A stretch of 64,000 bases of DNA from an uncultured Gammaproteobacteria bacterium (GTDB lineage: Bacteria; Pseudomonadota; Gammaproteobacteria; Steroidobacterales; Steroidobacteraceae): NCBI GenBank assembly GCA_963762315.1, contig CAVXKO010000004.1:1305707-1369706 (forward strand). The letters run 5' to 3'. Made by a program: the position numbers and the translations under genes. The notes under the pieces were generated by a model. It had not been told where the DNA came from. It did not search any database and saw only the letters and a program-made list of their open reading frames with translations. Each line of letters begins with the position of its first letter. The first letter of the stretch is position 1. Of this stretch, positions 3,938-45,132 are shown one piece after another.

Positions 3938-3982
3938 ATTCAGAATCGTGTATAGATACCCGCACGAAGTGGTGATCGGTAT

Positions 3983-17388: not shown

Positions 17389-18358
17389 TTGAAGCCCGCC
17401 GACGGCCACCGCAAGACCCGGTACGCGTTCCTGACGCTGCCCGATTACTCGATGATCGCGGTGACGAACGCCGTCGAGCCGTTGCGCATGGCCAATCGCG
17501 TCTCGGGGCAGGCCGCCTACGAATGGGTGATCGTGAGCCTCGACGGCGCACCCGGTTCCCGCCAGCAACGGCCTGACATTGACGCCGACACAGCGCCTCG
17601 GCGATGGCGAACCCGTCGACCTCGTGTTCGTGTGCGGCGGCGTCAACGTGCGCGAGGCCGTCTCGCCTGCCCTCCTCTCGACCCTGCGTCGCCTGGCCGC
17701 CAAGCAGATGCCGCTCGGCGCACTCTGCACCGGCGGTTACGCGCTGGCGCAGGCCGGATTGCTCGACGGCTATCGCGCCACGATCCACTGGGAAAATCTA
17801 TCGGCGCTGCGCGAACAGTTCCCGCGCGTGCTGATCTCGGACCACCTGTTCTCGATCGATCGCAATCGCTACACGTGCTCCGGCGGCGTCGCGCCGCTCG
17901 AGCTGATGCTGAACCTGATCGAGGAAAAGATGGGTCCGGCGGTTTCGCGCCTCGTGTCGGAGCAGTTCATCGTCGACCGCATCCGCGACAGCAGCGACCG
18001 GCAGTACGTCCCGCTGCGCGCGCAGGTGGGGCCGGTGCATCGCAGCGTGCTCGCGGTGGCTTCCCTCATGGAGGCCCACATCGAGAACCCGCTGCCCCTC
18101 GAGGAAATCGCGCACCGGTCCGGACTGTCGCGCCGGCAGATCGAGCGGCTCTTCAAGCGGCACGTGCACTGCGTGCCGAAGCGCTACTACCTCGAGCTGC
18201 GCCTGAAGCGCGCCCGCGAGCTGCTCTTGCAGACATCGATGCCGATCATGGCGATCAGCACGGCCTGCGGATTCCAGTCGCCGCCGCATTTTTCGAAGTG
18301 CTACCGCGGCCACTTCGGACGACCGCCGACGGCCGAGCGCCAGCCACGACGCGCGTGA
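17389..18358 (+). pseudogene. GbdR/SouR/CdhR-like AraC-family regulator (DJ-1/PfpI-like N-domain plus HTH_AraC), one frameshift near 17550
   Basis: TTG at 17389 lies 8 nt after GGAGG. The N-terminal part RYAFLTLPDYSMIAVTNAVEPLRMANRVSG is in one frame. VPASNGLTLTPTQRLGDGEPVDLVFVCGG...HTH (PLPLEEIAHRSGLSRRQIERLFK) is in the next frame. Length is 3n+1. Confidence 0.7.
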
Positions 18359-21845: not shown

Positions 21846-23402
21846 TCAGGTCACCGGCGGCGCTCCGCCCTCTTCCGTGCGGCGCGCAATGAAGGCGCTC
21901 ATCGCCTCGACCACGGCTGGGTCGCGCTCGGGCGCCACGTAGCGCGCCAGTGTTTCCTGGTACACGGTGTTGGCGCGTTCGGTGGCCGTCTTCGCGCCGT
22001 CGTTCGACCAGGTGCCGTAGTTGCGCCAGTCGGAGATGAGCGGCGAATAGAACGCCGTCCTGTACCGCTCCATCGTGTGCGCGCAGGCGAAGAAGTGCCC
22101 GCCGTAGCCGACTTCCGCAATCGCGTCGAGCGCGAGGTCCGCGACTTCCGCCCCGACGGGCTGGAACAGTTCGGCGAACATCTGCAGCATCTCGATGTCC
22201 ATGATGAATTTCTCATAGGACGTCGAGAGGCCACCCTCGAGCCAGCCGGCCGCGTGCAGCATGAAATTGGCGCCGCCCATCAGCGCGCCCCACAGGCTCA
22301 TCTGCGCCTCGTACGCGGCCTGCGCATCCGGCGCGTTCGACGCGGTGGCGTTCGACGAGCGCCAGGGCAGCTTGATGTGACGAGCGAGCTGCCCGGCGCC
22401 GAAGGACGCCTTGGAATACTCGGGCGTGCCGAATGCAGGCGATCCGGATTTCATGTCCACATTGGACGTGAAGCTGCCGTAGATGATCGGCGTGCCCGGG
22501 CGGACCATCTGCGCCAGCGTGATGCCGGCCAACGCCTCCGCATGCGCAAGCAACAGCGCACCGGTGATCGTCACCGGAGCCATCGCGCCCGCGAGCGTGA
22601 ACGGCGTGATGATCAGCACCTGCCCCGCTTCGGCGAAGTCGATGATGCCCTCGGCCATCGGGATGTCGAGCTGCAGCGGCGAATTCGTGTTGATGACCGT
22701 CCAGACGTACGGCTTCTTCCTGAAGTCGTCGGCGCTGACGCCGTGCGCGAGGCGAATCAGCTCGAACGAGTCCGCGATCTGCTTCGAGCCGCGCGAAAAG
22801 ATGAACGGCACCTTGTCCGAGAGCAGCAGCATCGAGCGCGTGGTCTCGTAGTGGCGCAGGTGCACGGGCACGTCCTGCGGCTCCACGGCTCCGCCGAGCG
22901 AATGGATCACGTCGAAGCTCTGGCACAGCTTGATGAGGTTGCAGAAGTCCTCGAACGTGCCCGCGCGACGCCCGTGGTGGATGTCCATGATGTTCGGCGG
23001 ACCCGACGTCGGCGCGAGGCAGACGTGCCGGCCGCCGACCGGCACGTGCAGTTCCGGGTTCAGCGCCTGGAAGGTGAACTGGCTCGGGGTCGTCGCGAGC
23101 GCCTTGGCGACCAGCGCGCGATCGAGGCGCACCACCTGGGTGGCCTCGTCGACGGTGGCGCCGCCCTCGCGCGTACCGCTTGCGGGCCAGGGCCGACAGC
23201 ACCTTCATGCCCTGGGTTTCGAGCACGCCGAGCGCGGCCTCGTGGATCGCCGCCACCTGGTCGTCCGAGTAGATCCGCGGGCGGCTCGAACGGATTGACC
23301 AGGCGGCGATAGGCGCGCGAGCGCTCGACTGTCGGCGCGCGTCACCGGAGCCGGGCGGCGCCGACCCGCACGCCGGGCGCTGTTCGTTTCGGGCTCGCTC
23401 AT
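21846..23402 (-). pseudogene. MttB-superfamily (trimethylamine methyltransferase family, non-Pyl) protein, copy 1, about 3 frameshifts in the first 250 nt
   Basis: The C-terminal 429 aa are uninterrupted and collinear with the intact copy at 39840..41423 (e.g. LVRPGTPIIYGSFTSNVDMKSGSPAFGTPE versus LVRPGAPVVLGSFASSMSMQSGAPTFGTPE). The N-terminus is spread over frames: MSEPETNSARRAGRRR... / YRRLVNPFEPP / RIYSDDQVAAIHEAALGVLETQGMKV / GGATVDEATQVVRLDRALV. The ATG at 23402 overlaps the lysR stop. Confidence 0.75.
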
Positions 23403-24465: not shown

Positions 24466-24484
24466 TTGCGCAAGCGTGGCGCAA
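24466..24484. promoter_or_regulatory. Candidate LysR-type operator: TTGCGC-N7-GCGCAA palindrome in the divergent lysR / TonB-receptor intergenic region
   Basis: Perfect 6-bp inverted repeat ttgcgcaagcgtggcgcaa, 81 nt upstream of the lysR ATG. It resembles the T-N11-A style dyads of LTTR sites. There is no experimental support. Confidence 0.3.
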
Positions 24485-24695
24485 TCGCCACACGCCGGGC
24501 AATGCCTTTTTTTCGATCCGGTTAATGCTTTTTTCAGATGCGGCAAGTGTGGACTTCTACGTATTTAGCTTGATATCTTCGGGCCGCAGTGCGATTGGCC
24601 GGGCGGCGAGCCGCACGGTCTCGAGAAAGCGGCAACATCCAGCCGGTAGCCGGAGTTGCATCAGAAACACAGCGAATGTCAGGGGGCCTCCACGC

Positions 24696-27338: not shown

Positions 27339-27355
27339 TCGCTCCTTGTCTTGAA

Positions 27356-27393
27356 GCAGGCCGGTGGAGTGATCCACCGGCCTGTTTTGCTTT
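27356..27393 (+). terminator. Rho-independent terminator after the TonB receptor gene
   Basis: CAGGCCGGTGGA-GTGA-TCCACCGGCCTG (12-bp perfect stem) followed by TTTTGCTTTT, 18 nt after the stop. Confidence 0.7.
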
Positions 27394-27419
27394 TGCGGCA
27401 GATCGGTCATCATCGCGGC

Positions 27420-32007: not shown

Positions 32008-32013
32008 GGTTCG

Positions 32014-32340
32014 GCTCCCTCTCCCGTTTACGGGAGAGGGCACGAGCATCGACGCGAGAGCGGCGATGCGAGGGGTGAGGGTCCGGAGCCCTCACCCGCG
32101 CTACGCGCGACCTCTCCCGCAAGCGGGAGAGGTGAAAGATTCCCTCTCCCGTTTACGGGAGAGGGCACGAGCATCGACGCGAGAGCGGCGATGCGAAGGG
32201 TGAGGGTCCGGAGCCCTCACCCGCGCCACGCGCGACCTCTCCCGCAAGCGGGAGAGGTAAAGATACCCTCACCCGCGCTACGCCCGACCTCTCCCGCAAG
32301 CGGGAGAGGTGAGGAAGCTCTCCCGCAAGCGGGAGAGGTG
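32014..32340. repeat. REP/BIME-like array: two full 125-bp units plus partial units, built from three hairpin types
   Basis: Units start at 32017 and 32142 and are nearly identical. Hairpins are CCCTCTCCCG-TTTA-CGGGAGAGGG, GTGAGGG-N7-CCCTCAC and CCTCTCCCGC-AA-GCGGGAGAGG (the last occurs 4 times). The array fills the gap between two convergent genes. Confidence 0.85.
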
Positions 32341-32349
32341 AAGACGCTC

Positions 32350-33219
32350 TTACCGGAAGATCACCGTCCGGCTGCCGTTGAGGAACACGCGATGTTCCGT
32401 GTCCAGCCGCACCGCCCGCGACAACGCTCGGCGCTCCGAATCCCGGCCCGCGGCCACCAGCATGTCCGGCGTATACGCATGATCCACGTGCTCGACGATC
32501 TGCTCGATGATCGGGCCTTCGTCGAGATCCGCCGTCACGTAGTGCGCCGTGGCGCCGATGACCTTCACGCCGCGGTCGTACGCCTGGTGGTACGGCTTGG
32601 CGCCCTTGAAGCCCGGCAGGAACGAATGGTGGATGTTGATCGCGCGGCCGCGCAGCTTGCCGCACAGGTCGTCCGAGAGGATCTGCATGTAGCGCGCCAG
32701 CACCACGAGATCCGTCTTCGTGGAGTCGATCAGTTCGAGCAGCTTCTGCTCCTGCTGGGGCTTCGTCTGCGGCGTGACCGGCAGGTGGAAGAACGGGATG
32801 CGATGCTGCGCCGCCGTCGGCTGCAGCGTGACGTGGTTCGAAACGATGGCCGTGATGTCCATCTTCAGCTCGCCGATGCGGTGGCGGTAAAGCAGGTCCT
32901 CGAGGCAGTGGTCGTAGTTCGACACCATGATCAGCACGCGGGCGCGCTGGCTGGAATCGTGGATCTGCCACTCCATGTCCTCGGCGTCCGCGACGGCCTG
33001 GAACTCGGCGCGCAGCTTCGCGAGATCGACCGGCTCGCCCACCACGCCGCAGAACGTGACGCGGACGAAGAAGCGCTGGGAGATCGTGTCGTCGAACTGC
33101 TGCATCTCGACGATGTAGAAACGCCGGCTGGCGAGGAACGCCGTGACGCGGGCCGTGGTGCCCATGCGGCTGGCGCAGGTGGCGGTCAGGACGTACGGGT
33201 GCTCGATGTTGAAACTCAT
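32350..33219 (-). CDS. purU: Formyltetrahydrofolate deformylase
   Basis: ACT-like N-domain, then ARYMQILSDDLCGKLRGRAINIHHSFLPGFKGAKPYHQAYDRGVKVIGATAHYVTADLDEGPII (formyl-transferase core). ATG at 33219. Confidence 0.9.
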   Translation of the reverse strand: MSFNIEHPYVLTATCASRMGTTARVTAFLASRRFYIVEMQQFDDTISQRFFVRVTFCGVVGEPVDLAKLRAEFQAVADAEDMEWQIHDSSQRARVLIMVSNYDHCLEDLLYRHRIGELKMDITAIVSNHVTLQPTAAQHRIPFFHLPVTPQTKPQQEQKLLELIDSTKTDLVVLARYMQILSDDLCGKLRGRAINIHHSFLPGFKGAKPYHQAYDRGVKVIGATAHYVTADLDEGPIIEQIVEHVDHAYTPDMLVAAGRDSERRALSRAVRLDTEHRVFLNGSRTVIFR

Positions 33220-33601
33220 GCCTCGCGCTCCAGCGGGCCCCAGCGGGGTCCGGTCGATTGTGCTGGGCGCGGAGATTGTCAGAATGCGACGCGTGGGCGC
33301 AAGCAACTTCGCGACGGAATCTTCTCCGCACGCGACGTGCCCGGGCTCCGGTAGAAAGCATGGACCCAGCGAAAAAAACGATTTGCGCCATGCCTCTCGC
33401 AGGCGCGCGGCCTTGCGGCGCGCCGACCGGCATCCGCAGCGATCCGGCCCCCTTTACAGTACCGGGCAAATGTCGCAAGGTGACAAGTGCATGTCGCCGC
33501 GGCACCACTTGTGGCCGTGGCGTGACCGTAACATCGCGCAACATCCCGGGGTTCGTCCCGGTACCTGCGCGCGACCGATCAGAGCCCGGAGTAAACGAGC
33601 G

Positions 33602-34303
33602 ATGAGTGACGAGCAATCGGAAGCATTCGACCTCAACAGCCTGAACGACCAGGAACTGACCGAGCAGGTCCACGACGACCTCTACAACGGCCTGAAGGAC
33701 GAGGTCGTCGAGGCGACGAACCTGTTCCTGCAGCGCGGCTGGGGGCCCGACAAGGTCCTCAACGACGCTCTGGTCGAAGGCATGCGCATCGTCGGCATCG
33801 ACTTCCGTGACGGCATCCTGTTCGTCCCCGAGGTGCTGCTCGCCGCCAACGCCATGAAGGCGGGCATGGAGATCCTGCGCCCCCTCCTCGCCGAGACCGG
33901 CGCGGAACCCATCGGCAAGGTCGTGATCGGCACCGTCAAGGGCGACATCCACGACATCGGCAAGAACCTCGTCTCGATGATGCTCGAGGGCGCCGGCTTC
34001 GAAGTGATCAACATCGGCATCAACAACCCGGTCGAGAACTACCTCGCAGCGCTCGAAGAGCACCAGCCGGACATCCTCGGCATGTCCGCGCTGCTCACGA
34101 CGACGATGCCGTACATGAAGGTCGTCATCGACACGCTCAAGCAGAAGGGCCTGCGCGACAAATACATCGTGCTCGTCGGCGGAGCCCCTCTCAACGAGGA
34201 GTTCGCCACGGCCGTCGGCGCGGACGCCTATTGCCGCGACGCTGCCGTCGCCGTGGAGACCGCCAAGGCACTGATTGCCGCGCGTCGCGCCGCGGCGCGC
34301 TGA
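33602..34303 (+). CDS. Cobalamin-binding corrinoid protein (MtbC/MtgC-like: B12-binding_2 cap plus Rossmann B12-binding domain)
   Basis: DxHxxG motif in GTVKGDIHDIGKNLV; downstream MSALLTTT and VLVGGAPL motifs. 233 aa. Confidence 0.85.
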   Translation: MSDEQSEAFDLNSLNDQELTEQVHDDLYNGLKDEVVEATNLFLQRGWGPDKVLNDALVEGMRIVGIDFRDGILFVPEVLLAANAMKAGMEILRPLLAETGAEPIGKVVIGTVKGDIHDIGKNLVSMMLEGAGFEVINIGINNPVENYLAALEEHQPDILGMSALLTTTMPYMKVVIDTLKQKGLRDKYIVLVGGAPLNEEFATAVGADAYCRDAAVAVETAKALIAARRAAAR

Positions 34304-34311
34304 CGTGGTCG

Positions 34312-34959
34312 ATGTCGAGTGACGCGCCCGTCCTGATCATCGCCTGCGGAGCACTCGCCCGCGAGATCGTGGCGTTGAAGCGCGTCAACGGCTGGTCGGG
34401 GATGGACGTGCAGTGCCTACCGCCGGAGTTGCACAACCGTCCCGAACAGATTCCAGCGGCCGTGCAGCAAGCGATCGACGAAGCGCGCGGCCGTCATGCC
34501 CGCATCTTCGTTGCGTACGCGGACTGCGGCACAGGCGGCAGGCTGGACGCCGTGCTGCAGGCCGAAGGCATCGAACGGCTGCCGGGCGCGCACTGCTACG
34601 AGTTCTACGCCTCGTCCGCGGCGTTCGAGAAGCTGGCCGACGAGGAACCCGGCACGTTCTACCTGACGGACTTCCTGGTGCGCCACTTCGACCGCCTAGT
34701 GATCGAGGGCCTCGGGATCGACAGGCACCCGGAGCTGACCGGCGAGTACTTCCGCAACTACCGGCGGCTCGTCTACCTCGTGCAATCGCAAGACGCGGAA
34801 CTGTCCGCAGCGGCGCGAGTCGCGGCGGGAAAACTCGGACTGGCCTATGAAGAACGCCACACCGGCTACGGTGAACTCGCGACGGGCCTCGAGTCCGCCG
34901 TGCGTCCGTCGAACGGGCCGTCCACGGGCACTGAAAAGAGGGTTGCATGGCATCGTTGA
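34312..34959 (+). CDS. DUF1638-like protein (family that co-occurs with corrinoid methyltransferase systems)
   Basis: VLIIACGALAREI...VQCLPPELHNRPEQIP...YADCGTGG...PGAHCYEF pattern as I recall for DUF1638. Starts 9 nt after the corrinoid gene stop. Confidence 0.6.
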   Translation: MSSDAPVLIIACGALAREIVALKRVNGWSGMDVQCLPPELHNRPEQIPAAVQQAIDEARGRHARIFVAYADCGTGGRLDAVLQAEGIERLPGAHCYEFYASSAAFEKLADEEPGTFYLTDFLVRHFDRLVIEGLGIDRHPELTGEYFRNYRRLVYLVQSQDAELSAAARVAAGKLGLAYEERHTGYGELATGLESAVRPSNGPSTGTEKRVAWHR

Positions 34960-35297
34960 TCATCATTTCCTGGCGTGACGTCCCGGCCCAGGTCATCGTG
35001 AAGCGCGGCCGGGAGGTTGCGAAAGTGCAGCTCTCGATGCGCTTCCAGGAAGCAGTCGATCGCGCCGCCATGCGCGCCGGCCGCGGCAGCTCCGACGCCT
35101 ATCTCGAGGATTGGCAGCGCAGCCCGCCGACCCCCTGTGGCGACGACCTCCGGGCCGAGGCCGACAAGGCCGCGGCGGACATCGAAGCCCGGTACACGGA
35201 TGACGACCTCCTGCGCCTGATCCGCGCCAAGGGCATCGACGAGAACAAGGCGCAGGGGGCACCTGCGAGCCCCGCCACGGACAGCGGGTCGCCCTGA
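34947..35297 (+). CDS. Small conserved protein of unknown function (resembles the family often auto-annotated 'virulence factor' next to MetV/MetF)
   Basis: 116 aa, MASLIIISWRDVPAQVIVKRGREVAKVQLSMRFQEAVDRAAMRAG. Overlaps the upstream gene by 13 nt and shares one base (TGATG) with the downstream gene, which implies translation within the operon. Confidence 0.4.
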   Translation: MASLIIISWRDVPAQVIVKRGREVAKVQLSMRFQEAVDRAAMRAGRGSSDAYLEDWQRSPPTPCGDDLRAEADKAAADIEARYTDDDLLRLIRAKGIDENKAQGAPASPATDSGSP

Positions 35298-35755
35298 TGT
35301 ACGCGGTGCGCCTCTGGTCCGTGCGCCATGCGCGAGGCCTCTCGCGCGTCTACGCGGGATTCGAATCCGTGCTGATGAAGCTCGCCCCGTTGTTCGAGAA
35401 GATCGGCTACCAGCGCATGGAGCGCCCGGTGGCGGCGGTCGAGCATGCGGTCAAGGGCCTGCTGTTCGACTGCAAGATGTGCGGTCGCTGCGTGCTCAGC
35501 TCGACCGGCCTCTCCTGCCCGATGAACTGCCCCAAGCAGCTGCGCAACGGCCCTTGCGGCGGTGTGCGCGCCAACGGCAACTGCGAAGTGAAGCCCGAGA
35601 TGCGCTGCGTGTGGGTCGAGGCGTGGCAAGGCGCCGAGAGGATCCCGGGCGGCCTCGAGGCGATCAGCGTCGTGCAGGCGCCGGTCGACCGGCGGCTCGA
35701 AGGCACGTCTGCGTGGCTGCGCGTCGCTCGCGAGAAGAGCGGAGCCGCCAAGTGA
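35297..35755 (+). CDS. Methylenetetrahydrofolate reductase C-terminal-domain protein (MetV-like, Cys-rich)
   Basis: CKMCGRCVLSSTGLSCPMNCPKQLRNGPCGGV cysteine cluster typical of MTHFR_C / MetV. 152 aa. Confidence 0.7.
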   Translation: MYAVRLWSVRHARGLSRVYAGFESVLMKLAPLFEKIGYQRMERPVAAVEHAVKGLLFDCKMCGRCVLSSTGLSCPMNCPKQLRNGPCGGVRANGNCEVKPEMRCVWVEAWQGAERIPGGLEAISVVQAPVDRRLEGTSAWLRVAREKSGAAK

Positions 35756-35833
35756 TCTTCGAAGACGAGCCGGTACCGGGCTACCCGCTGCCGATCCTGC
35801 CCGGGCACACCTCGCCCGGGCCGGTTCGAGCGC

Positions 35834-36772
35834 GTGTTGCGCGCCGGTGCGTTCGCCATCACGGCGGAACTCGCGCCGCCGGACTCCGCCGATCCCGACG
35901 AAGTCTACAAGCGGGCTCGGGTATTCGACGGCTACGTCGACGCCATCAATGCGACGGACGGCAGCGGCGCGAACTGCCACATGTCGAGCATGGCCGTGTG
36001 CGCCCTGCTCACCCGCGTCGGCTACGCGCCGGTGATGCAGATCTCCTGCCGCGACAAGAACCGCATCGCCATCCAGGGCGACATCCTCGGTGGGGCCGCG
36101 ATGGGTGTCTGCAACATGCTTTGCCTGACGGGCGACGGCGTGCAGGCCGGCGACCACCCGCAGGCCAAGGCCGTGTTCGACCTCGATTCGGTGTCGCTGC
36201 TCGGCATCGCGCGCGGCCTGCGCGACGACCACCATTTCGAAAGCGGGCGCAAAGTCACTTTCGCGCCGCGCGTGTTCTTCGGCGCGGCCGAGAATCCGAG
36301 TGTGCCGCCCGTCGAGCACCGCATGCGCCGACTGGCCAAGAAGGTGGCGGCCGGCGCGCAGTTCATCCAGACGCAGTACTGCTACGACATGGACCTGCTG
36401 CGCGCGTTCATGAAAGGCGTCGAGGATGCCGGGTTGCTCGACAAGGTGTTCATCCTGATCGGCGTCGGGCCGCTGCGCTCCGCCAAGGCCGCCGACTGGA
36501 TGCGCACCAACGTCCCGGGCATCCACATTCCGGACGCCATCGTAAACCGCCTGAAAGGCGCGCAGGACCAGGCCCGCGAAGGCCGCGACCTCTGCGTCGA
36601 CCTCATCCAGGAAGCCCGCTCCATCAAGGGCGTGGCCGGCGTCCACGTCATGGCCTACCGGCAGGAGGAATCCGTCGCCGAGGTCATCGACCGCTCGGGC
36701 GTCCTCGGCGGCCGCGTGCCGTGGTACCCGGGCCGCGACGCACAGATCAACGAAGACAGGAAGACATCATGA
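35834..36772 (+). CDS. metF: Methylenetetrahydrofolate reductase (MetF-type catalytic subunit); the true start may be GTG 35752 if a frameshift near 35818 is corrected
   Basis: AFAITAELAPPDSADP...YVDAINATDGSGA...QISCRDKNRIA...LCLTGDG...AQFIQTQYCYD are MTHFR TIM-barrel motifs. The only in-frame start is GTG 35834, which would cut the conserved RFERVLRAG segment. Confidence 0.8.
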   Translation: MLRAGAFAITAELAPPDSADPDEVYKRARVFDGYVDAINATDGSGANCHMSSMAVCALLTRVGYAPVMQISCRDKNRIAIQGDILGGAAMGVCNMLCLTGDGVQAGDHPQAKAVFDLDSVSLLGIARGLRDDHHFESGRKVTFAPRVFFGAAENPSVPPVEHRMRRLAKKVAAGAQFIQTQYCYDMDLLRAFMKGVEDAGLLDKVFILIGVGPLRSAKAADWMRTNVPGIHIPDAIVNRLKGAQDQAREGRDLCVDLIQEARSIKGVAGVHVMAYRQEESVAEVIDRSGVLGGRVPWYPGRDAQINEDRKTS

Positions 36773-37695
36773 CCGACACCGTCATCAGCTCCGCGACCCG
36801 CGAGGTCGTCATCGGCTTCGATCGCCCGTTCGTCATCATCGGCGAGCGCATCAACCCGACCGGCCGCAAGCTGCTCGCCGCGGAAATGGCCGCCGGCGAC
36901 TTCAGCCGCGTCGAATCCGATGCGCTGGCGCAGGTTGCGGCCGGCGCCCACATGCTCGACGTCAATGCCGGCATCCCGCTCGCCGACGAGCCCGCCATCC
37001 TCGCCAAGGCCGTGCAGCTGGTGCAGTCGATCACCGACGTGCCGCTCTCGATCGACTCCTCGATCGTCGCCGCGCTCGCTGCCGGCCTCGCGGTCTACAA
37101 GGGCAAGGCGCTGGTGAACTCGGTGACGGGCGAAGAAGATCGCCTCGAGACGGTGCTGCCCCTGGTCAAGAAGTACGGCGCGGCGGTCGTCGCCATCTCG
37201 AACGACGAGACCGGCATCTCCGAAGACCCGGACGTGCGCTTCGAGGTGGCGAAGAAGATCGTGCACCGCGCGATGGACCACGGCATCCCGGCGTCCGACG
37301 TCGTCGTCGACCCGCTCGTGATGCCGATCGGCGCCATCAACCAGGCCGGCGTGCAGGTCATGCGCCTCGTGAAGCGGCTCAAGGACGAACTGAAGGTCAA
37401 CACGACCTGCGGCGCCTCGAACGTCAGCTTCGGCCTGCCCGCGCGCGACGGCATCAACAGCGGCTTCCTCACGATGGCCATCGCTTCGGGCCTGACGTCC
37501 GCGATCACCAACCCGCTGCACGGCGACATCGTCCGCGCCTGCATGGCCGCGGACGTGATGATGGGTCACGACCCGGACTGTGCGCGCTGGATCCGCCGGT
37601 TCCGCGAAGTCCCGGCTCCGGGTGCCCCGGGCGCAGGCGGCGACGCGCCGCGCGGCCGCCGCGAAGGCGGACACCGTCGCCGTCCCACCCCTTGA
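36769..37695 (+). CDS. Pterin-binding methyltetrahydrofolate:corrinoid methyltransferase (MtrH/AcsE/MetH-pterin-domain family)
   Basis: FVIIGERINPTGRKLL, LDVNAG, SIDSS, ALVNSVTGE and CGASNVSFGLP motifs. The ATG overlaps the metF stop (ATGA). Confidence 0.8.
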   Translation: MTDTVISSATREVVIGFDRPFVIIGERINPTGRKLLAAEMAAGDFSRVESDALAQVAAGAHMLDVNAGIPLADEPAILAKAVQLVQSITDVPLSIDSSIVAALAAGLAVYKGKALVNSVTGEEDRLETVLPLVKKYGAAVVAISNDETGISEDPDVRFEVAKKIVHRAMDHGIPASDVVVDPLVMPIGAINQAGVQVMRLVKRLKDELKVNTTCGASNVSFGLPARDGINSGFLTMAIASGLTSAITNPLHGDIVRACMAADVMMGHDPDCARWIRRFREVPAPGAPGAGGDAPRGRREGGHRRRPTP

Positions 37696-37711
37696 GCCTG
37701 AGGCAGATCGC

Positions 37712-39721
37712 TTGAGTCCGCAGGATCCGCTCGTCGTCTTCACGCCCTCCGGCAAGCGCGGACGCTTTGCCGTGGGCACGCCGCTGCTCACCGCCGCGCG
37801 CCTGCTCGGCGTCGACATCGATTCGGTGTGCGGCGGGCGTGCGATCTGCGGCCGCTGCCAGGTGCTGGTGGCGGAAGGCGAATTCGCCAAGCACGGCGTT
37901 CGCTCGAGCGCCGCGAGCCTGACGGAAGTCTCGGCGACGGAAAAGCGCTACGGCGAACGCAAGGGCCTCGCAGCAGGCTGCCGCTTGTCCTGCCAGGCGA
38001 AGGTCCAGGGCGACGTCGTGGTGGACGTGCCGCAGAACAGCCAGGTGCACCGCCAGGTCGTGCGCAAGGAAGCCGAGGCGCGCGACATCGAGCTGTATCC
38101 GCTCGTGAAGCTCCACTACGTCGAAGTCGCGGAGCCCGACATGCACGATCCTTCGGGGGACCTGCAGCGGCTCGAGCTGGCGCTGGCGCGCGAGTGGCAG
38201 CTGAAGAACCTCGAGTGCGACCTCACCACGTTGCAGCAGCTGCAGCCGATCCTGCGCGCCGGCGACTGGAAGGTCACCGTCGCCGTGCACGACGAGTCGC
38301 GCATCATCGCGGTGTGGCCGGGCTTCCACGAAACGGCGTTCGGCATGGCCGTGGACGTCGGCTCGACCACGATCGCGGCGCACCTGTGCGATCTCGTCAC
38401 CGGCGAAGTGGTGACCTCCGCGGGCCGCATGAACCCGCAGATCCGCTTCGGCGAAGACCTCATGAGCCGCGTGTCGTACTCGATGATGAACCCGGGCGGC
38501 GCGGCGCAGATGACTGCGGCCGTGCGCGAGGCGCTCAGCCAGTTGGCTGGCGAGGTGGCTGCGGCCGCCGGCGTCGAACGTGAATCGATCGTCGAGGCGA
38601 CGATCGTCGGTAACCCGATCATGCACCACCTCGTGCTCGGCATCGATCCGGTCGAGCTCGGCGGCGCGCCCTTTGCGCTGGCAATCGATCGTGCGGTGAC
38701 GGTGACGGCCGCCGAGATCGGCGTCGCCCTGCATCCGAATGCGCGGGTCTACGCCCTGCCCTGCATCGCCGGGCACGTGGGCGCGGACACGGCGGGGGTG
38801 ATCCTGGCCGAGCGGCCCGACCTCACCGACGAGATGACCCTGCTCGTGGACGTCGGCACCAACGCCGAAATCGTCCTTGGCAACCGGCAGAAGCTGGTGG
38901 CCTGCTCGAGCCCGACGGGGCCTGCGTTCGAAGGCGCGCAGATCAGCTGCGGCCAGCGCGCGGCGCCCGGCGCCATCGAGCGCGTACGGATCGATCGCGA
39001 GACGCTGGAGCCGCGCTTCAAGGTCATCGGGTCGGACCTGTGGTCCGACGATCCTGAATTTGCCGTCGCGACGGCGGGAACCGGCGTCACGGGCGTGTGC
39101 GGCTCCGGCATCATCGAAGTGATCGCCGAAATGTACCTCGCTGGCATCCTGACGCAGGACGGCGTGATCGACGGATCCCTGGCCGCCAAGTCACCCCGCG
39201 TCGTCGCGAACGGCCGCACGTTCTCCTACGTGCTGCACCATGGCGCGCAGATGCTCAGCATTACCCAGAACGACGTGCGCGCCATCCAGCTCGCCAAGGC
39301 GGCCCTGATGGCCGGCATCCGGCTGTTGATGGAACGCCTCGGCGTCGAGAAGGTGGATCGCATCCGCCTGGCGGGCGCGTTCGGAGCCCACATCGACGTC
39401 ATGTACGCCACGGTGCTCGGCATGATCCCGGACTGCGACCTGACGAAGGTCACGTCGGCGGGCAACGCCGCGGGGACAGGCGCACGTATCGCCCTGCTCG
39501 ATTCGCGCTCTCGCGAAACCATCGAGAACCTCGTGCGGCGCGTGGAGAAGATCGAGACTGCCATCGAGCCGCGCTTCCAGGAGCACTTCGTCGAGGCGAT
39601 GTCGATTCCGCACAAGACAGCGGACTACCCGAACCTGCGCAAGGTCGTGGAACTGCCGGCGCCGAAGGTGCTGGCTCAGTCGTCGCCTGACGGACGGGAA
39701 CGCCGCAACCGCCGGAAATAG
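37712..39721 (+). CDS. Corrinoid reductive-activation protein (RACo/RamA-like): N-terminal plant-type [2Fe-2S] ferredoxin plus ASKHA ATPase domain
   Basis: CGGRAICGRCQV ... CRLSCQ cysteine pattern. ASKHA-like segments GMAVDVGSTTIAAHL and LLVDVGTNAEIVLG. TTG 37712 lies 8 nt after GAGG. The track ORF start at 37580 overlaps the previous gene by 116 nt and is less likely. Confidence 0.8.
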   Translation: MSPQDPLVVFTPSGKRGRFAVGTPLLTAARLLGVDIDSVCGGRAICGRCQVLVAEGEFAKHGVRSSAASLTEVSATEKRYGERKGLAAGCRLSCQAKVQGDVVVDVPQNSQVHRQVVRKEAEARDIELYPLVKLHYVEVAEPDMHDPSGDLQRLELALAREWQLKNLECDLTTLQQLQPILRAGDWKVTVAVHDESRIIAVWPGFHETAFGMAVDVGSTTIAAHLCDLVTGEVVTSAGRMNPQIRFGEDLMSRVSYSMMNPGGAAQMTAAVREALSQLAGEVAAAAGVERESIVEATIVGNPIMHHLVLGIDPVELGGAPFALAIDRAVTVTAAEIGVALHPNARVYALPCIAGHVGADTAGVILAERPDLTDEMTLLVDVGTNAEIVLGNRQKLVACSSPTGPAFEGAQISCGQRAAPGAIERVRIDRETLEPRFKVIGSDLWSDDPEFAVATAGTGVTGVCGSGIIEVIAEMYLAGILTQDGVIDGSLAAKSPRVVANGRTFSYVLHHGAQMLSITQNDVRAIQLAKAALMAGIRLLMERLGVEKVDRIRLAGAFGAHIDVMYATVLGMIPDCDLTKVTSAGNAAGTGARIALLDSRSRETIENLVRRVEKIETAIEPRFQEHFVEAMSIPHKTADYPNLRKVVELPAPKVLAQSSPDGRERRNRRK

Positions 39722-39724
39722 GGA

Positions 39725-39840
39725 AAAATAGGGGACATTCTCGGTTTTCGAAAAAAGGGGGACATTCTCGGTTTTTGAAAGCAGGGAAGAAAACCGAGAA
39801 TGTCCCCCTTTTTTCGAAAACCGAGAATGTCCCCTATTTT
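39725..39840. repeat. Composite palindrome, copy 2 of 2 (same GGGGACATTCTCGGTTTT cores); fills the gap between two convergent stop codons
   Basis: Arms 39725..39776 and about 39790..39840 are reverse complements (one unpaired base next to the loop). It is flanked by TAG 39719-39721 (+ gene) and TGA 39840-39842 (minus gene). Confidence 0.9.
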
Positions 39841-41423
39841 CAGATGTTGGAGTCGGGAGCCGCGGCCTTGCGGCGGTCGATGAAGTCGACGAGCGCGTCG
39901 TCGATCGCCGGATCGAGCGGGGGCGCGACGTATTCCTCGAGCTGCTTCTTCCAGTACGCATTGGCGCGGTGCGCCATGTCGAGCGAGCCCTCGGCCTGCC
40001 ACTGCTCGAAGCTGTTGTTGTCCGCGAGCGGCGAGCGGTAGAACGCGCCCTCGAAATTGGCCTGCGTGTGCGCGCAACCGAGGAAGTGGTTGCCGTGGCC
40101 GACCTCGGCGATCGCGTCCATGGCCTGGCCGTTCTCCGACAGGTCCACGCCCGCCAGCAGCGTGTGCATCATCCCGGCCTGGTCCGCGTCCATCACGAAC
40201 TTCTCGTAACCCATCGCGAGGCCGCCCTCGAGCCAGCCCGCGGTGTGCAGCACGAAGTTCACGCCGGCGAGGCAGGTCGGGAGCAGCGTCTGAGCCGACT
40301 CGAAAGCCGCCTGCGCGTCCGGAATCTTGGCGGCACATAGACTGCCGCCCGAGCGGAACGGCACGCCGAGACGGCGCGCCAGCGCGGCCATGATGTAGAG
40401 CACCAGCGCGGGCTCGGGCGTGCCGAACGTCGGCGCGCCGGACTGCATCGACATCGACGAGGCGAAGCTGCCAAGCACGACCGGGGCGCCGGGGCGCACG
40501 AGCTGCGCGAAGGCCATGCCGGCGAGGGCCTCGGCCAGCGTCTGCGCCGCCGTGCCGGCCACGGTCACCGGCGACATCGCACCCGAGAGGATGAACGGCG
40601 TGATGATCGTGGCCTGGTTGGCGCGCGCATAGACCTTCAGCGCGCCGAGCATCGTCGCGTCGTAGATCAGCGGCGAGTTCACGTTGATCAGGCTGATCAA
40701 CAGCGTCTTCGGAAGGCCGGTGGCCGGGTCGTCCGCTTCGGCACCGAAGGCAAGGCGCGCCATCTCGACGCTGTCCTCGGCGCGCTCGGGGGCCGTCACG
40801 GAGCCCATGAACGGCTTGTCGCTGTACTTGACGTGCGTGTACACCATGTCGAGGTGACGCTTGTTCACCGGCAGGTCCACCGGCTCGCAGATCGTGCCGC
40901 CCGAGTGGTGCAGCGAGTTCGCCATGTAGGCGAGCTTCACGAAGTTGCGGAAGTCGTCGAGGCGCGCGTACCGGCGGCCTTCGTCGATGTTGTAGATGAA
41001 CGGCGAACCGTACGCCGGCGCGAACACGGTGGCGTCCCCGCCGATCCGCACGCTGCGAGCGGGATTGCGCGCGTGCTGCACGAACTCGCGCGGGGCGTTC
41101 TTCTGCACCAGCTCGCGGCACATGCCGCGCGGAAACTTGACGATCTCGCCGTTGACGTCGGCGCCCGCCCTCTTCCAGATCGCGAGGGCCTCGGGATCGT
41201 CGCGGAAGATGATGCCGGTCTCCGCGAGGATCGTCTCGGCGTTGCGCTCGATGAGGGCCAGGCCCTCCTCGTTCAGCACCTCGAATCGCGGGATGGCACG
41301 GACGATGTACGGCACGGAGGCCGAGGCTCGCGCCGCCCGCGCGGCCCGCTTGGCGTCACGGCCGTGGCGCAGCGCGCGCTTCTCCGCCGGCTGCCCGCCC
41401 GCGTTGGATTCCGTATCTGACAT
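39840..41423 (-). CDS. MttB-superfamily methyltransferase, non-pyrrolysine type, intact (candidate quaternary-amine:corrinoid methyltransferase)
   Basis: 527 aa uninterrupted with no in-frame TAG. Collinear with copy 1. Family-typical segments NSPLIYDATMLGAL, ITPFILSGAMSPVT, HTAGWLEGGL and GHGNHFLGCAHT. Confidence 0.85.
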   Translation of the reverse strand: MSDTESNAGGQPAEKRALRHGRDAKRAARAARASASVPYIVRAIPRFEVLNEEGLALIERNAETILAETGIIFRDDPEALAIWKRAGADVNGEIVKFPRGMCRELVQKNAPREFVQHARNPARSVRIGGDATVFAPAYGSPFIYNIDEGRRYARLDDFRNFVKLAYMANSLHHSGGTICEPVDLPVNKRHLDMVYTHVKYSDKPFMGSVTAPERAEDSVEMARLAFGAEADDPATGLPKTLLISLINVNSPLIYDATMLGALKVYARANQATIITPFILSGAMSPVTVAGTAAQTLAEALAGMAFAQLVRPGAPVVLGSFASSMSMQSGAPTFGTPEPALVLYIMAALARRLGVPFRSGGSLCAAKIPDAQAAFESAQTLLPTCLAGVNFVLHTAGWLEGGLAMGYEKFVMDADQAGMMHTLLAGVDLSENGQAMDAIAEVGHGNHFLGCAHTQANFEGAFYRSPLADNNSFEQWQAEGSLDMAHRANAYWKKQLEEYVAPPLDPAIDDALVDFIDRRKAAAPDSNI

Positions 41424-41546
41424 GGCGACCGTCTCCCGGCTGCTAGGAGATCAGTATGGTCAGCCCGCCCCAGGGGGGCTGATCAATTTGCGACAAAGAC
41501 ATGCCTGTGCGCGCCATGGCCCGGCGCGCACGGGCCTGCCGTGCGA

Positions 41547-43901
41547 TCAGGGCACGCCGAAGCGGTACGTCCCGCTCAGGCCATACCAGCGGGGCTTGGC
41601 ATACACGCCGGCCACCACGCCCGCGAACAGCGAGCTGTCGAACGCGTACAACCGGTACTTCTCTTCGAAAAGGTTGCTCACGAACGCCGCGACGCCCCAG
41701 CGGCCACTGCCGCTCTCGTAGCTCAGGCGGGCATTCGCCACGGTGTACGAATCCTCCTCTTCCACCGGCGCGCACAGCACCGTGAAGCAGAAGCTGCTCG
41801 AGTACTGGACGTCGCCCTGGATGCCGAACGTGCCACCCGCGACGCCGAACTCGTACCGGGCCAGCGCATTGCCGGAGAATTCCGGGGTCTGCGGCAGCTC
41901 GTGGTCCTCGACCGTCACGCCGTCCGGCAGCGGCACGTCCTTGACCGTCGAATCGAGGAACGACGCAGCGACCTGCAGCGTCAGCCCCTCGATCGGCCGC
42001 GACATGAGTTCCGCCTCGAGGCCGGTGATGTTCGCGTCGAGGTTGATCACGGTCTGCACCGGCCCGAACTGCGCGAAAGCCTGGTAATCGGAGTAGTCGT
42101 AGTAGAACGCCGCCAGGTTCAGCGTGGTCGTGCCGCCGAGCGTCGACTTGACGCCGATCTCGTAGGCATCCAGCGTCTCCTCGTCGAACGGAATGCCGTC
42201 GAGGAAGACGCGCGGATTGTCGCCGCTGCCATCGGGGTCGAACGGCGTGCCCGTCGAGAACGTATAGCCGCCGCTCTTGCTGCCGCGGTTGAAGCTTCCA
42301 TAGAGCAGCAGATTGTCGGTCGGCTTCCAGTCGAGCTGCACACGCGCGGTGATTCCGTCGAAGCTGTGGGTGGCATCGCCCGGAGTCAGGTCGCTGCCGA
42401 GCGGAAAGACCTCGTTCTTGTTGAAGATGATCGTGACGGGCGCCGACAGCGGCGGCGCGCCCTCGGACGGTGGAGGCACTTCCGGCGCGGTGCCGAAATA
42501 GCTGCCTTCGCGCTCGTCGCTCCAGTAGCGCGCGCCGACGATCAGCTTCCAGGCGTCGGCAAAGGCCCATTCGTCCTGCGCGAATACCGCGTAGGAGGTC
42601 GTCTTCTGGGTCATCTCGACCGTCGGGTCGTAGCCGTAGAACGGATCGGCAAACTTGCCGGTGTAGTCGCCGTCGACCTTCATGCCGTACACGCCCGCCA
42701 CCCACGTGTGTGCGCCGGATTGGCCCGACAGCCGGAATTCCTGCGAGTACTGGTCGAGGTCGCTGCCCTGGTAGAACAGTACGCCGTCGACCGGCGAGGC
42801 ATCGCCGCCTTCGAGGTAGAACTTCTCGCCGTGCTGCCAGTCGGTGATCGAGATCAGGTGCAGTGCATCGCCGATGTCCCAGTCGAAGTGCAGCGTGGCG
42901 CCGGTGATCTCGCGGTCCACGTAGGAGCGCTGCGTCTCCGCAGTCTTCCAGGGGTCGCCGCCCCATTGCGGCGTAATGGCGTCGTTGCGATATCCCGTGC
43001 CGGCCTCACCGGGCCCGGTGCCCCAGAACGCACAGGACTGGTCCTGCCGCGTGAATTCGCCCTGGAACCGGTCGTTCGGGCAGGCCGGCGCCATCGAGTA
43101 CAGGCCCGCCTGCGTCTCCTTGTTCGCCTTCATGTAGCGGACGATCAGGTTCAGGTCCGTGGCGTCCGAAGGCTGCCACGACAGCTGGCCGCGGACCGAG
43201 TACTGGTCGTTGCCTCCGCGGTCGCCGACGCCCGGGATGACGGACTCCATGTATCCATCGTCCTGGTTGCTGATCGCGGCGATGCGTGCCTGCACCTTGT
43301 CGCCGAGCGGGCCCGAGACCGCACCCTCGAGGATCCACTGGTTGTAGCTGCCGACGGTCGCGGTCGCGTAACCCGTGAAATAGTCGGTCGGCTTGTTCGA
43401 CACGAACTGGATTGCGCCGCCCGTCGCATTGCGGCCGAACAGCGTGCCCTGCGGACCGCGCAGCACTTCCACGCGCGCCAGGTCGAAGATCGGGAAGCTC
43501 GCCATGTTGATCGAGCTCGAGTAGCTGTCGTCCTGGTAGACGGCGACGGGCGGCTCCTGCTGGTCGCCGTAGTCGTTCTGCGATACGCCGCGGATGTTGA
43601 ACACCACCTGCGAAGACGAATACGCATTCATCTTGAGGCTGGGCACCGCGCGCGCGATGTCCGTGGCCGTCGTGATGTTGAGGTCGGTCAGCATCTGGTT
43701 TCCGAGCACCGTGACCGCAATGCCGACGTCCTGCAGCTTTTCTTCACGGCGTTGCGCGGTCACCACGACTTCCTCGATTCCCGTCGTCGCGGAGGCTTCC
43801 TGTGCCAGGGCCGCATGCGGCGCACAGGCGAGCGCCACGGCCGAGCCCACGAGGGAACCTGAAATACGACTCACTACGGATGGACAGCGTCGGACGACCA
43901 T
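41547..43901 (-). CDS. TonB-dependent outer-membrane receptor
   Basis: ATG 43901 after GGGAG. Signal peptide ...ALACAPHAALAQE. Plug motif IEEVVVTAQRREEKLQDVGIAVTVL. 784 aa, ending in a YRF-type strand. Confidence 0.9.
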   Translation of the reverse strand: MVVRRCPSVVSRISGSLVGSAVALACAPHAALAQEASATTGIEEVVVTAQRREEKLQDVGIAVTVLGNQMLTDLNITTATDIARAVPSLKMNAYSSSQVVFNIRGVSQNDYGDQQEPPVAVYQDDSYSSSINMASFPIFDLARVEVLRGPQGTLFGRNATGGAIQFVSNKPTDYFTGYATATVGSYNQWILEGAVSGPLGDKVQARIAAISNQDDGYMESVIPGVGDRGGNDQYSVRGQLSWQPSDATDLNLIVRYMKANKETQAGLYSMAPACPNDRFQGEFTRQDQSCAFWGTGPGEAGTGYRNDAITPQWGGDPWKTAETQRSYVDREITGATLHFDWDIGDALHLISITDWQHGEKFYLEGGDASPVDGVLFYQGSDLDQYSQEFRLSGQSGAHTWVAGVYGMKVDGDYTGKFADPFYGYDPTVEMTQKTTSYAVFAQDEWAFADAWKLIVGARYWSDEREGSYFGTAPEVPPPSEGAPPLSAPVTIIFNKNEVFPLGSDLTPGDATHSFDGITARVQLDWKPTDNLLLYGSFNRGSKSGGYTFSTGTPFDPDGSGDNPRVFLDGIPFDEETLDAYEIGVKSTLGGTTTLNLAAFYYDYSDYQAFAQFGPVQTVINLDANITGLEAELMSRPIEGLTLQVAASFLDSTVKDVPLPDGVTVEDHELPQTPEFSGNALARYEFGVAGGTFGIQGDVQYSSSFCFTVLCAPVEEEDSYTVANARLSYESGSGRWGVAAFVSNLFEEKYRLYAFDSSLFAGVVAGVYAKPRWYGLSGTYRFGVP

Positions 43902-43923
43902 GACGGACTCCCAGGGTGACGGA

Positions 43924-45132
43924 TCAGGTGAAAGCGTGGGCGCGGGCGTCGCTCGTGGCGAGCGCGCGCAGGACTTCAGTCGGGCCGCAGACACCGCGCA
44001 CGCTGCCGGACTCCGCGAGCAGCACGGGTTGGCCGGCTCGGCACCATTGGATCAGTTGGCGCAACGGCGTTTCGATGTCGGCGACGAGCATCCCCGTGCC
44101 GTCCTCGCCCGCCGAGCGCAGCGAAATCGACTCGCCATCGCGCGTGGCCGCGAGCGGGCGGCCTTGGGCATCGATCGTGGCGGAAAACTGGCGCGCCGGA
44201 TCGAGCCAGCGCCGCTCGCCGTCGGTCTGCAGATCGGACAGCGGCTTCATGACCATGCGACCGTTCAGCACCGACAGCGGGTTCATGTGCTGCACGAACT
44301 CGCCGACATACGCGTTGGCCGGTCGCAGCACGATGTCCTCGGGCGTGCCGGTCTGCACGATGCGCCCGCCTTCGAGGACGGACGTCTGGTTGCCGAGCTT
44401 CAACGCCTCGTCGAGATCGTGCGTCACGAACAGGATGGTCTTGCGCACGCGCGCCTGCAGCGCCAGCAGCTCGTCCTGCAGCTTGGTCCTGATCAGTGGA
44501 TCGAGCGCCGAGAACGGTTCGTCCATCAGCAGGATCGGTGCGTCGGTCGCAAAGGCTCGCGCCAGGCCCACGCGTTGCTGCATGCCGCCCGACAGCTCGT
44601 GTCCGTACCGATCCGCCCAGCGCTCCAGGCCGACGAGCTCGAGTTTCTCGTCCACGATGCGTTTGCGAGCATCCTCGGAGTCGCCGCGCAGCTCGAGGCC
44701 GAGCCCCACGTTCTCGCGCACGGTGCGCCAGGGCAGCAGGCCGAACTGCTGGAAGATCATCGCGATCGAGCCGCGGCGCAGCCGGCGCAGGTCGGCCGCG
44801 CTGCAACTGGCGACGTCGACGTGCTTCTCCCCGTCGTACACGAGCACGTGTCCGCGCGTGACGCGATTGAGGCCGTTGGCCGCGCGCAGCAGCGTCGACT
44901 TGCCGGAGCCGGATAACCCCATGAGCACGGAGATCTGCCCGCGCTGCACGGTGAGGCTCGCCTGGCTGACGCCGACGACGACGCCTGTCGCCGACTCGAT
45001 CTCGGTCCGGTTCTTGCCGCCGTCGAGCTGGCCGAGCGCCGTCCTGATCGAGGCATCGCGCTTCCTTCCCGACAGGCTCTTGCTCGGGAACAGGATGTCG
45101 ACCTTGTCGAACTCGACCGCCGCGGCGCTCAT
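43924..45132 (-). CDS. proV: Glycine betaine/proline betaine-type ABC transporter ATP-binding protein with C-terminal CBS-like region
   Basis: Walker A GLSGSGKST, signature LSGGMQQRVGLARA, Walker B ILLMDEPFSALD. About 130 aa C-terminal extension as in ProV/OpuAA. Confidence 0.9.
   Translation of the reverse strand: MSAAAVEFDKVDILFPSKSLSGRKRDASIRTALGQLDGGKNRTEIESATGVVVGVSQASLTVQRGQISVLMGLSGSGKSTLLRAANGLNRVTRGHVLVYDGEKHVDVASCSAADLRRLRRGSIAMIFQQFGLLPWRTVRENVGLGLELRGDSEDARKRIVDEKLELVGLERWADRYGHELSGGMQQRVGLARAFATDAPILLMDEPFSALDPLIRTKLQDELLALQARVRKTILFVTHDLDEALKLGNQTSVLEGGRIVQTGTPEDIVLRPANAYVGEFVQHMNPLSVLNGRMVMKPLSDLQTDGERRWLDPARQFSATIDAQGRPLAATRDGESISLRSAGEDGTGMLVADIETPLRQLIQWCRAGQPVLLAESGSVRGVCGPTEVLRALATSDARAHAFT

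Follow-up and report, generated by a model that had tools for sequence, protein, structure and literature searches.

A seven-gene operon and a convergent gene of the MttB family, found in a 64,000-nucleotide stretch of an uncultured gammaproteobacterium labelled Steroidobacteraceae (assembly GCA_963762315.1, contig CAVXKO010000004.1, positions 1,305,707 to 1,369,706; hereafter the window), appear to encode a cobalamin-dependent quaternary-amine demethylase of the MtgBCD type together with the oxidation of methyl-tetrahydrofolate (methyl-THF) and the repair of the corrinoid cofactor in an aerobic host, a reading to which we give a probability of about 0.8 from sequence comparison. The basic system is already known, as MtgBCD was identified as a glycine betaine demethylase through proteomics and knockouts in Ruegeria pomeroyi (Mausz et al., PNAS 2025, PMC12478193), and what is described here is its operon form in a soil gammaproteobacterium. 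Support comes from the domain identities, motif conservation, synteny and orthology to a Sinorhizobium meliloti locus presented below and, from the literature, from the genetics and proteomics of R. pomeroyi and Phaeobacter inhibens; on these we infer the substrate of the MttB protein, the direction of MetF and the roles of the DUF1638 and PF13769 proteins.

In the proposed pathway, a ChoXWV-type ATP-binding cassette (ABC) transporter would bring in the substrate, and MttB1 (MtgB) would move one N-methyl group, most likely from glycine betaine, onto the Co(I) of the corrinoid protein MtgC, giving dimethylglycine and CH3-Co(III). MtgD would hand the methyl group to tetrahydrofolate, the MetF/MetV reductase would work oxidatively to form methylene-THF, and FolD, encoded elsewhere, would lead with the adjacent PurU to formate. 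Where Co(I) is oxidised to Co(II), a [2Fe-2S]-ASKHA activase of the RACo type would re-reduce it with ATP, with the DUF1638 protein and probably the PF13769 protein acting as accessories in corrinoid repair, while enzymes like dimethylglycine dehydrogenase (DMGDH) and the SoxBDAG enzymes of the same window would degrade dimethylglycine and sarcosine. The route from a quaternary amine over the corrinoid, CH3-THF and MetF to PurU, with RACo re-reduction, had been suggested in an earlier note on this DNA and agrees with the domains, conserved residues, neighbourhoods and published genetics of homologous systems.

The same note held the role of such clusters in aerobic proteobacteria not to be established, a statement that is outdated in the light of recent genetics. 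The mtgC and mtgD mutants of R. pomeroyi fail to grow on glycine betaine, do not consume it and are methionine auxotrophs, and the organism induces MtgB-family proteins, MetF2, RamA and DUF1638 when given glycine betaine, choline or carnitine (PMC12478193). The same study reports mtg homologs, often in operons, from Alpha-, Gamma- and Deltaproteobacteria, and a co-localisation of MtgBCDE, the reactivation genes and the cob operon in S. meliloti. In P. inhibens, mtgB1 and mtgB1/gbcAB mutants act as a glycine betaine methyltransferase predicts (2025 preprint, 10.64898/2025.12.19.695462). DUF1638 and a RamA/RACo-like protein had been linked to B12 reactivation in 2018, with no function offered for DUF1638 (PMC5764234). 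The mtg genes go unmentioned in a 2026 preprint that deals with glycine betaine and B12 in Rhizobiaceae.

Operon, MttB1 and their relatives

All eight genes were assigned by Pfam and NCBIfam at the positions first proposed for them (Table 1), with matches to each of the models concerned (MTTB, B12-binding/B12-binding_2, Pterin_bind, MTHFR, MTHFR_C, DUF1638 and the RACo domains). The operon runs in the order corrinoid protein, DUF1638, PF13769, MetV-like, MetF, mtgD and RACo, convergent with mttB1. The mtgC translation contains the motifs GDIHDIG (DxHxxG, His-on), SALLTTT and LVGGAPL and is 80% identical to the cobalamin-binding protein of the S. meliloti mtg locus; its best NCBIfam matches are MtgC models, all under their cut-offs, which fits the distinct clade reported for aerobic MtgC, the models being of the anaerobe type. 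The mtgD product exceeds the cut-off of NF005719 (PRK07535 MeTr; 363 bits against 259) and is 63% identical to its S. meliloti homolog. The activase most likely starts at TTG 37712, in agreement in both start and length with the call in L083, an independent short-read contig, and joins an N-terminal [2Fe-2S] ferredoxin domain to an ASKHA domain, with the motifs CGGRAICGRC and DVGSTT. It reaches 408 bits against the AcsV model (cut-off 800) and likewise stays under the RamA equivalog cut-off, and is therefore best described as a RACo-architecture protein rather than an AcsV or RamA ortholog. MttB1 matches PF06253 over residues 19-522 with 760 bits and is encoded, as the earlier note had claimed, by one intact open frame of 527 codons with no internal stop and no in-frame TAG.

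The overlapping stop and start codons noted before at 34947, 35297 and 36769 are present in the sequence, the metV ATG overlapping the TGA of the preceding PF13769 gene and metF and mtgD meeting in an ATGA. The genes had been described as tightly packed, and the 78-nt gap between metV and metF needs correction. DNA alignment against L083 and a second relative, L070, places a 1-nt insertion in a C-run near 35813, which interrupts the metF frame 20 codons in; in both relatives the metF start overlaps the metV stop (GTGA/ATGA), and metF of L083 is called as 339 aa. The gap is thus an artefact of the indel, and the whole operon would be translationally coupled. The in-frame part of metF, from GTG 35834, comprises 312 aa and retains the complete catalytic domain. 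An N-terminally longer MetV, hinted at by the tblastn alignment with S. meliloti, was rejected on account of a stop codon directly before the same methionine in L070. With Rfam, no cobalamin riboswitch or other RNA family was found in the whole window at gathering thresholds or in the operon leader (33250-33650) at E<=1, and a scan for promoters and terminators over 32000-42000 yielded no promoter-like site and, for terminator-like sites, a lower count than in shuffled sequence.

At least 80 GTDB species representatives carry an ortholog of MttB1 (68-93% identity), most of them metagenome-assembled genomes of soil or freshwater Gammaproteobacteria labelled Steroidobacteraceae, the other hosts being Comamonadaceae, Halieaceae, Halomonas lysinitropha, Motiliproteus, Stellaceae, Inquilinus and one Limnocylindrales. 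The operon mtgC-DUF1638-PF13769-metV-metF-mtgD-RACo is present in about 33 of the 80 loci, usually adjoining the MttB1 ortholog, and L083 (97% DNA identity) has identical order and gene lengths; with the same order kept in L083 and in about two-fifths of these loci, the arrangement is far from chance. The corresponding set in S. meliloti consists of MttB (PDB 4YYC), a cobalamin-binding protein, DUF1638, a 'virulence factor', MTHFR_C, MTHFR, MeTr and an ASKHA protein, which are 52-80% identical, protein by protein, to those of the window; bmt is ~6 kb from this set.

Table 1. Coordinates of the operon, of mttB1 and of other features; positions refer to the window unless another locus (L number) is named
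Feature	Coordinates	Strand	Basis and remarks
mtgC, stand-alone corrinoid (cobalamin-binding) protein	33602..34303	+	233 aa; Pfam B12-binding_2 (PF02607) and B12-binding (PF02310)
DUF1638 protein	34312..34959	+	215 aa; PF07796, E 6.5e-30
PF13769 ('Virulence_fact') protein	34947..35297	+	116 aa; E 7.8e-23
metV, MetV-like Cys-rich small subunit of MetVF-type methylene-THF reductase	35297..35755	+	152 aa; PF12225 (MTHFR C-terminal), E 3e-26
metF, MetF2-type methylene-THF reductase	35752..36772	+	PF02219, E 2.4e-33, profile positions 7-287
mtgD, methyl-corrinoid:THF methyltransferase (AcsE/MeTr-like)	36769..37695	+	308 aa; Pterin_bind (PF00809)
RACo-type ATP-dependent reductive corrinoid activase	37712..39721	+	669 aa; Fer2, RACo_linker, Raco_middle, RACo_C_ter
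mttB1 (mtgB-type, non-pyrrolysine MttB family; predicted glycine betaine:corrinoid methyltransferase)	39840..41423	-	527 aa; PF06253 (MTTB)
Perfect 51-bp inverted repeat between convergent stops	39725..39840	.	arms 39725-39775 and 39790-39840, 100% complementary
mttB2, divergent MttB-family paralog	21846..23400	-	MTTB 610 bits; beside LysR regulator; ~16 kb upstream
purU, formyl-THF deformylase, divergent from operon	32350..33306	-	NF004684 391 bits, TIGR00655 319 bits, both over cut-off
TonB-dependent receptor between ABC transporter genes and mttB1	41547..43994	-	Plug and TonB_dep_Rec_b-barrel; same place in L001, L056, L083
choV-type ATPase, choline/betaine ABC transporter	43924..45132	-	TIGR03415 486.7 bits, cut-off 483.75
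choW permease	about 45129-45960	-	TIGR03416 386.7 bits, cut-off 363
choX substrate-binding protein	about 46023-46869	-	partial TIGR03414 match in one open reading frame; frameshift near 46428
GbdR-like AraC-family regulator, N-terminally short	17579..18358	+	NF052371 GbdR 328 bits, cut-off 480, profile positions 73-326; DJ-1_PfpI and HTH_18
MtgE-like gene	L026 8516-9439		cobT nearby in L026
In-frame PF13769-RACo fusions, one lineage	L084 8001-9320; L085 8001-9254		also protein P0306

Substrate of MttB1 and alternative readings

MttB1 was compared by sequence with MtgB of Desulfitobacterium hafniense, MttB of Methanosarcina barkeri and the S. meliloti protein, and the likeness to R. pomeroyi and P. 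inhibens was drawn by protein families. Its best PDB match is 4YYC of S. meliloti, to which it is 67% identical by tblastn, and it shares 46% identity (423 bits) with D. hafniense MtgB, whose glycine betaine site is formed by Y97, R312, H348 and F356 (Picking et al. 2026, PMC13080624). Y138, R357 and H393 of MttB1 align with the first three of these four residues; the position of F356 is taken by G401, with W397 one helical turn away. Y138, R357, H393 and W397 are invariant in all 82 orthologs of at least 65% identity, and the position of the binding tyrosine holds S, T or G in eight of nine paralogs, the tyrosine setting the MttB1 orthogroup apart from them. These residues, combined with a context of betAB, choXWV, GbdR-like, DMGDH-like and sox genes, point to glycine betaine as the likeliest substrate, and we regard that assignment as probable.

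Trimethylamine, the substrate implied by automatic annotation, can practically be dismissed. MttB1 does belong to Pfam MTTB and its homologs are annotated 'trimethylamine methyltransferase family protein', but mttB1 is one uninterrupted reading frame with no in-frame UAG for pyrrolysine, its product reaches only 260 bits against the pyrrolysine-type equivalog TIGR02369 (cut-off 525), and M. barkeri MttB (141 bits) is a much poorer match for it than MtgB. It is unlikely, if conceivable, that MttB1 demethylates another quaternary amine, such as proline betaine, carnitine, gamma-butyrobetaine, a choline ester or phosphocholine, with the rest of the module unchanged. Specificity in the MttB family is varied and hard to predict, MthB taking only phosphocholine, and genomes with the MtgBCD system hold up to seven MttB paralogs; the transporter co-oriented with mttB1 fits choline-type ChoXWV models, and one of the two aromatic residues that bind glycine betaine is not conserved. 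These points are set against the match of Y138, R357 and H393 to the binding Tyr, Arg and His, the aromatic pair being one that MtcB, MtpB, MthB and MtyB do not keep (Picking et al. 2026, PMC13080624). The neighbourhoods argue the same way, since the ortholog of Azoarcus sp. KH32C (77% identical) has as neighbours folD, ETF-QO, a choline ABC substrate-binding protein and the glycine betaine-making genes betA and betB, and the window is rich in genes for the breakdown of dimethylglycine and sarcosine, as would suit the product formed when glycine betaine loses a methyl group.

The remaining alternative, to which the earlier note had not drawn attention, is that the operon serves mainly as the core of a split cobalamin-dependent methionine synthase, in which MtgC, MtgD and the reactivation proteins would be served by a reductive MetF making CH3-THF and the MttB neighbourhood would be secondary. 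In P. inhibens, methionine synthesis depends on every one of the homologous genes (corrinoid, pterin-binding, RamA-like and DUF1638; Price et al. 2018, PMC5764234), and the auxotrophy of the R. pomeroyi mutants is in line with this (PMC12478193). In four Steroidobacteraceae-like genomes (L026, L034, L017 and L014), moreover, a gene for an MtgE-like homocysteine methyltransferase (PF02574) lies directly upstream of the MttB1 ortholog, with cobT nearby in L026, which links the system of this lineage to methionine synthesis and cobalamin biosynthesis. Yet the window shows no homocysteine-binding module, the operon, with purU on one side and MttB on the other, is part of an island of betaine, dimethylglycine and sarcosine catabolism, and in R. 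pomeroyi on glycine betaine MtgE drops while MtgBCD and MetF2 rise (PMC12478193). A dual catabolic and methionine role is likely, and an exclusively anabolic one very improbable.

Some observations weigh against demethylation of glycine betaine by the system proposed here. The ChoXWV transporter family is named for choline and not for betaine, and the window contains no folD, betAB, cob or mtgE gene. The F356L mutant of D. hafniense MtgB has a Km raised several hundred-fold and the same position is glycine in MttB1, so the binding pocket differs. The metF frame carries an apparent frameshift, and MetVF-type reductases are known from strict anaerobes, with ferredoxin as the proposed redox partner.

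The window also encodes a second MttB paralog, MttB2, which had been overlooked, as had the ChoXWV and TonB-dependent receptor genes upstream of mttB1. MttB2 is 40% identical to S. meliloti MttB (4YYC) and has a serine at the position of the glycine betaine-binding tyrosine, with the Arg and His retained; the N-terminal part of its gene is broken by two frameshifts, leaving pieces in three frames. To judge by these residues, it probably acts on a substrate other than glycine betaine. In other genomes, intact orthologs stand beside mtgC or mttB1, so MttB2 is probably a second methyltransferase with a substrate of its own, working through the same MtgC and MtgD.

DUF1638, PF13769 and MetV-like proteins

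Three of the operon's proteins (DUF1638, PF13769 and MetV-like) gave no significant match in a sequence search of the PDB. Across 32 DUF1638 sequences, whose relatives share 50-76% identity with the protein encoded here, the residues C12, C72, C95, H41 and H94 are conserved, and an AlphaFold2 (AF2) model shows an alpha/beta protein with a predicted local distance difference test (pLDDT) score of 80. A Foldseek search of the PDB with this model gave nothing significant (best E 0.015, template modelling (TM) score <0.36), its matches being generic alpha/beta folds, e.g. transcarbamoylases and racemases. The conserved cysteines and histidines would be compatible with a metal or redox centre.

The 116-aa protein, which the earlier note had called unknown, belongs to family PF13769. 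It has no conserved cysteine; W9, R10, D11, P13, R22, R32, F33, R39, W56 and E80 are conserved, and the AF2 model (pLDDT 79) has a three-stranded sheet followed by helices, for which none of the PDB folds searched with Foldseek was a match (best E 0.17). An exhaustive search with the PF13769 profile returned 1135 cluster representatives, nearly all single-domain and 100-120 aa long, and the protein is present in most of the related operons and in S. meliloti. Three proteins, mutually 53% identical, carry PF13769 at the N-terminus of a RACo-like protein, with clean junctions in two of the three (P0306 and P0392), and the loci of these fusions also carry mtgC-DUF1638, or metH with an MTTB gene. 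In the Limnocylindrales locus L077, PF13769 stands between DUF1638 and mtgD and no metVF was detected in the operon. By the fusions and the L077 layout, PF13769 would go with the part of the module concerned with activation and not with MetVF, an association that may hold but is thinly supported; the long-read contigs are error-prone. Two further candidates, the DUF1638-PF13769 fusions P0265 and P0294, were rejected as read-through artefacts, their sequences containing frameshifted stretches. In L084, the reading frame before the PF13769-RACo fusion joins B12-binding domains to DUF1638, which may be a frameshift artefact.

The MetV-like protein has seven conserved cysteines, and its gene (PF12225, Cys-rich) beside that of MetF (PF02219) gives a gene layout of the MetVF type. 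MetVF enzymes have so far been studied in acetogens, with reduced ferredoxin as the proposed electron donor (PMC8515935, PMC8760232). Neither PF13769 nor MetV is mentioned in the published MtgBCD paper (Mausz et al. 2025, PMC12478193). As a tentative idea, which we think more apt to fail than to hold, PF13769 and DUF1638 could be dedicated RACo accessory subunits that feed or gate electrons or dock the activase on MtgC and so sustain Co(I) in oxygen-respiring cells; DUF1638 could hold a metal centre of the Cys3-His type, and MetV/MetF could be a MetVF-type reductase with a new, aerobic electron acceptor. If true, the activase with its accessories would be an oxygen-adapted corrinoid repair complex mechanistically unlike the RamA, RamQ and RACo of anaerobes.

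Surroundings of the operon and comparison with known systems

The context was drawn from Pfam and NCBIfam scans of the other large open reading frames of the window. These outline an island for the catabolism of betaine, dimethylglycine and sarcosine, with several DMGDH-like genes of the DAO-FAO_M-GCV_T type and two soxBDA(G) sets, and also show cytochrome bd and fdhD; with purU, whose product in L083 measures 289 aa, this is the context described earlier for the locus. Nor, in line with that description, is any gbcAB- or bhmt-like gene visible: there was no Pfam match to Rieske (GbcA-like) or homocysteine S-methyltransferase domains among the window reading frames scanned, and tblastn with S. 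meliloti bmt and with a Steroidobacteraceae MtgE-like protein gave no match in the window. The mttB1 gene lies downstream of choXWV on the same strand, with the gene for a TonB-dependent receptor in between. A tblastn alignment of Azoarcus ChoX against choX is split over two frames. Every NCBIfam match of the receptor is far under its cut-off, and its candidacy as a B12 receptor finds no support (66 bits against the BtuB model, cut-off 600). A second TonB-dependent receptor is encoded at 24342-27338 (+), and two receptors thus adjoin the two MttB genes. At 27351-29426 (+) lies the gene for a protein of tetratricopeptide repeats (TPR) with a C-terminal sulfotransferase domain, which recurs near mtg genes in L026 (11526-13556) and L083 (1471-3474).

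The inverted repeat between RACo and mttB1 folds with -92 kcal/mol (z -16.9), and its palindromic element recurs at 3815-3948. The element consists of two direct copies of GGGGACATTCTCGGTTTT followed by two inverted copies, and the hairpins, of 51 bp (39725-39840) and 63 bp (3815-3948), stand just past gene ends. It is probably a bidirectional terminator and looks like a repetitive extragenic palindromic (REP) element or a miniature inverted-repeat transposable element (MITE); in L083 the intergenic region at this site is much shorter. Short REP-like palindromes are clustered at 32017-32339, in the convergent gap of a HIBADH-like gene and purU, as CCTCTCCCG-N4-CGGGAGAGG and GGGTGAGGG...CCCTCACCC, and similar copies occur in L070. 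An IS3-family transposase (HTH_21, rve and rve_3) is encoded at 62212-63063 (-), close to the right-hand end of the window, where the G+C content falls to ~0.62-0.64.

Besides mttB2 and metF, frameshifts interrupt or fuse a DMGDH-like gene, soxB, a truncated DMGDH-like gene, choX and soxA (13478-17307, 19545-21323, 46023-46869 and 52339-55441). With so many frameshifted genes, the window may come from an indel-prone (long-read) assembly or contain real pseudogenes, and the apparent pseudogenes should not be over-read.

The reading of this region as an MtgBCD-type demethylase would mean that the aerobic, B12-dependent demethylation of glycine betaine recently described in marine Alphaproteobacteria also takes place in abundant Gammaproteobacteria of soil and fresh water (Steroidobacteraceae and their relatives), and that the turnover of osmolytes in soils calls for cobalamin. 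Two conserved parts that the published model leaves undiscussed, PF13769 and the MetV-like subunit, come to light in the compact operon; with DUF1638, they bear on how aerobes sustain Co(I) chemistry and the oxidation of methyl-THF.

Among known systems, the MtgBCD(E) system of R. pomeroyi and P. inhibens shares with the one described here an MtgB of pfam06253, a stand-alone MtgC, a pterin-binding MtgD, MetF2, an activase of Fer2 and DUF4445 and a DUF1638 protein, in an aerobic host and alongside dimethylglycine and sarcosine catabolism and THF-linked one-carbon oxidation. Here, however, the host is a soil or freshwater Steroidobacteraceae-like gammaproteobacterium and not a marine alphaproteobacterium, and the genes form one tight seven-gene operon, whereas they are scattered in R. 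pomeroyi. The operon also holds the PF13769 and MetV-like genes, and its MttB gene is co-oriented with ChoXWV and a TonB-dependent receptor, with no mtgE in the window.

The anaerobic systems, MtgB/MtgC/MtgA with a RamA-family activase in D. hafniense and MtpB, MtcB, MtyB and MthB with RamQ in Eubacterium limosum, have the same three-component methyl transfer (methyltransferase MT-I, corrinoid protein, methyltransferase MT-II) and an ATP-dependent activase. The present system differs from them in belonging to an aerobe, in which methyl-THF would be oxidised and not sent to acetogenesis or respiration, in a corrinoid protein that falls under the NCBIfam MtgC cut-offs, in the glycine at the place of F356, and in the additional DUF1638 and PF13769 proteins. 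The chloromethane utilisation (cmu) pathway of Methylobacterium extorquens CM4 (CmuA, CmuB, MetF2, FolD and PurU; PMC3621897) is likewise an aerobic, corrinoid-dependent methyl transfer to THF, from which a dedicated MetF2, FolD and PurU lead on to formate; this downstream logic is shared, and in the window purU also lies beside the operon. In cmu, CmuA unites the first methyltransferase with the corrinoid domain and CH3Cl is the substrate, whereas here a separate MttB-family enzyme and a stand-alone corrinoid protein would act on a quaternary amine. Finally, the adjacent MetV and MetF resemble the MetVF of Clostridium ljungdahlii (PMC8515935, PMC8760232), being translationally coupled in the relatives of the window, but they occur in an aerobe and presumably run in the oxidative direction.

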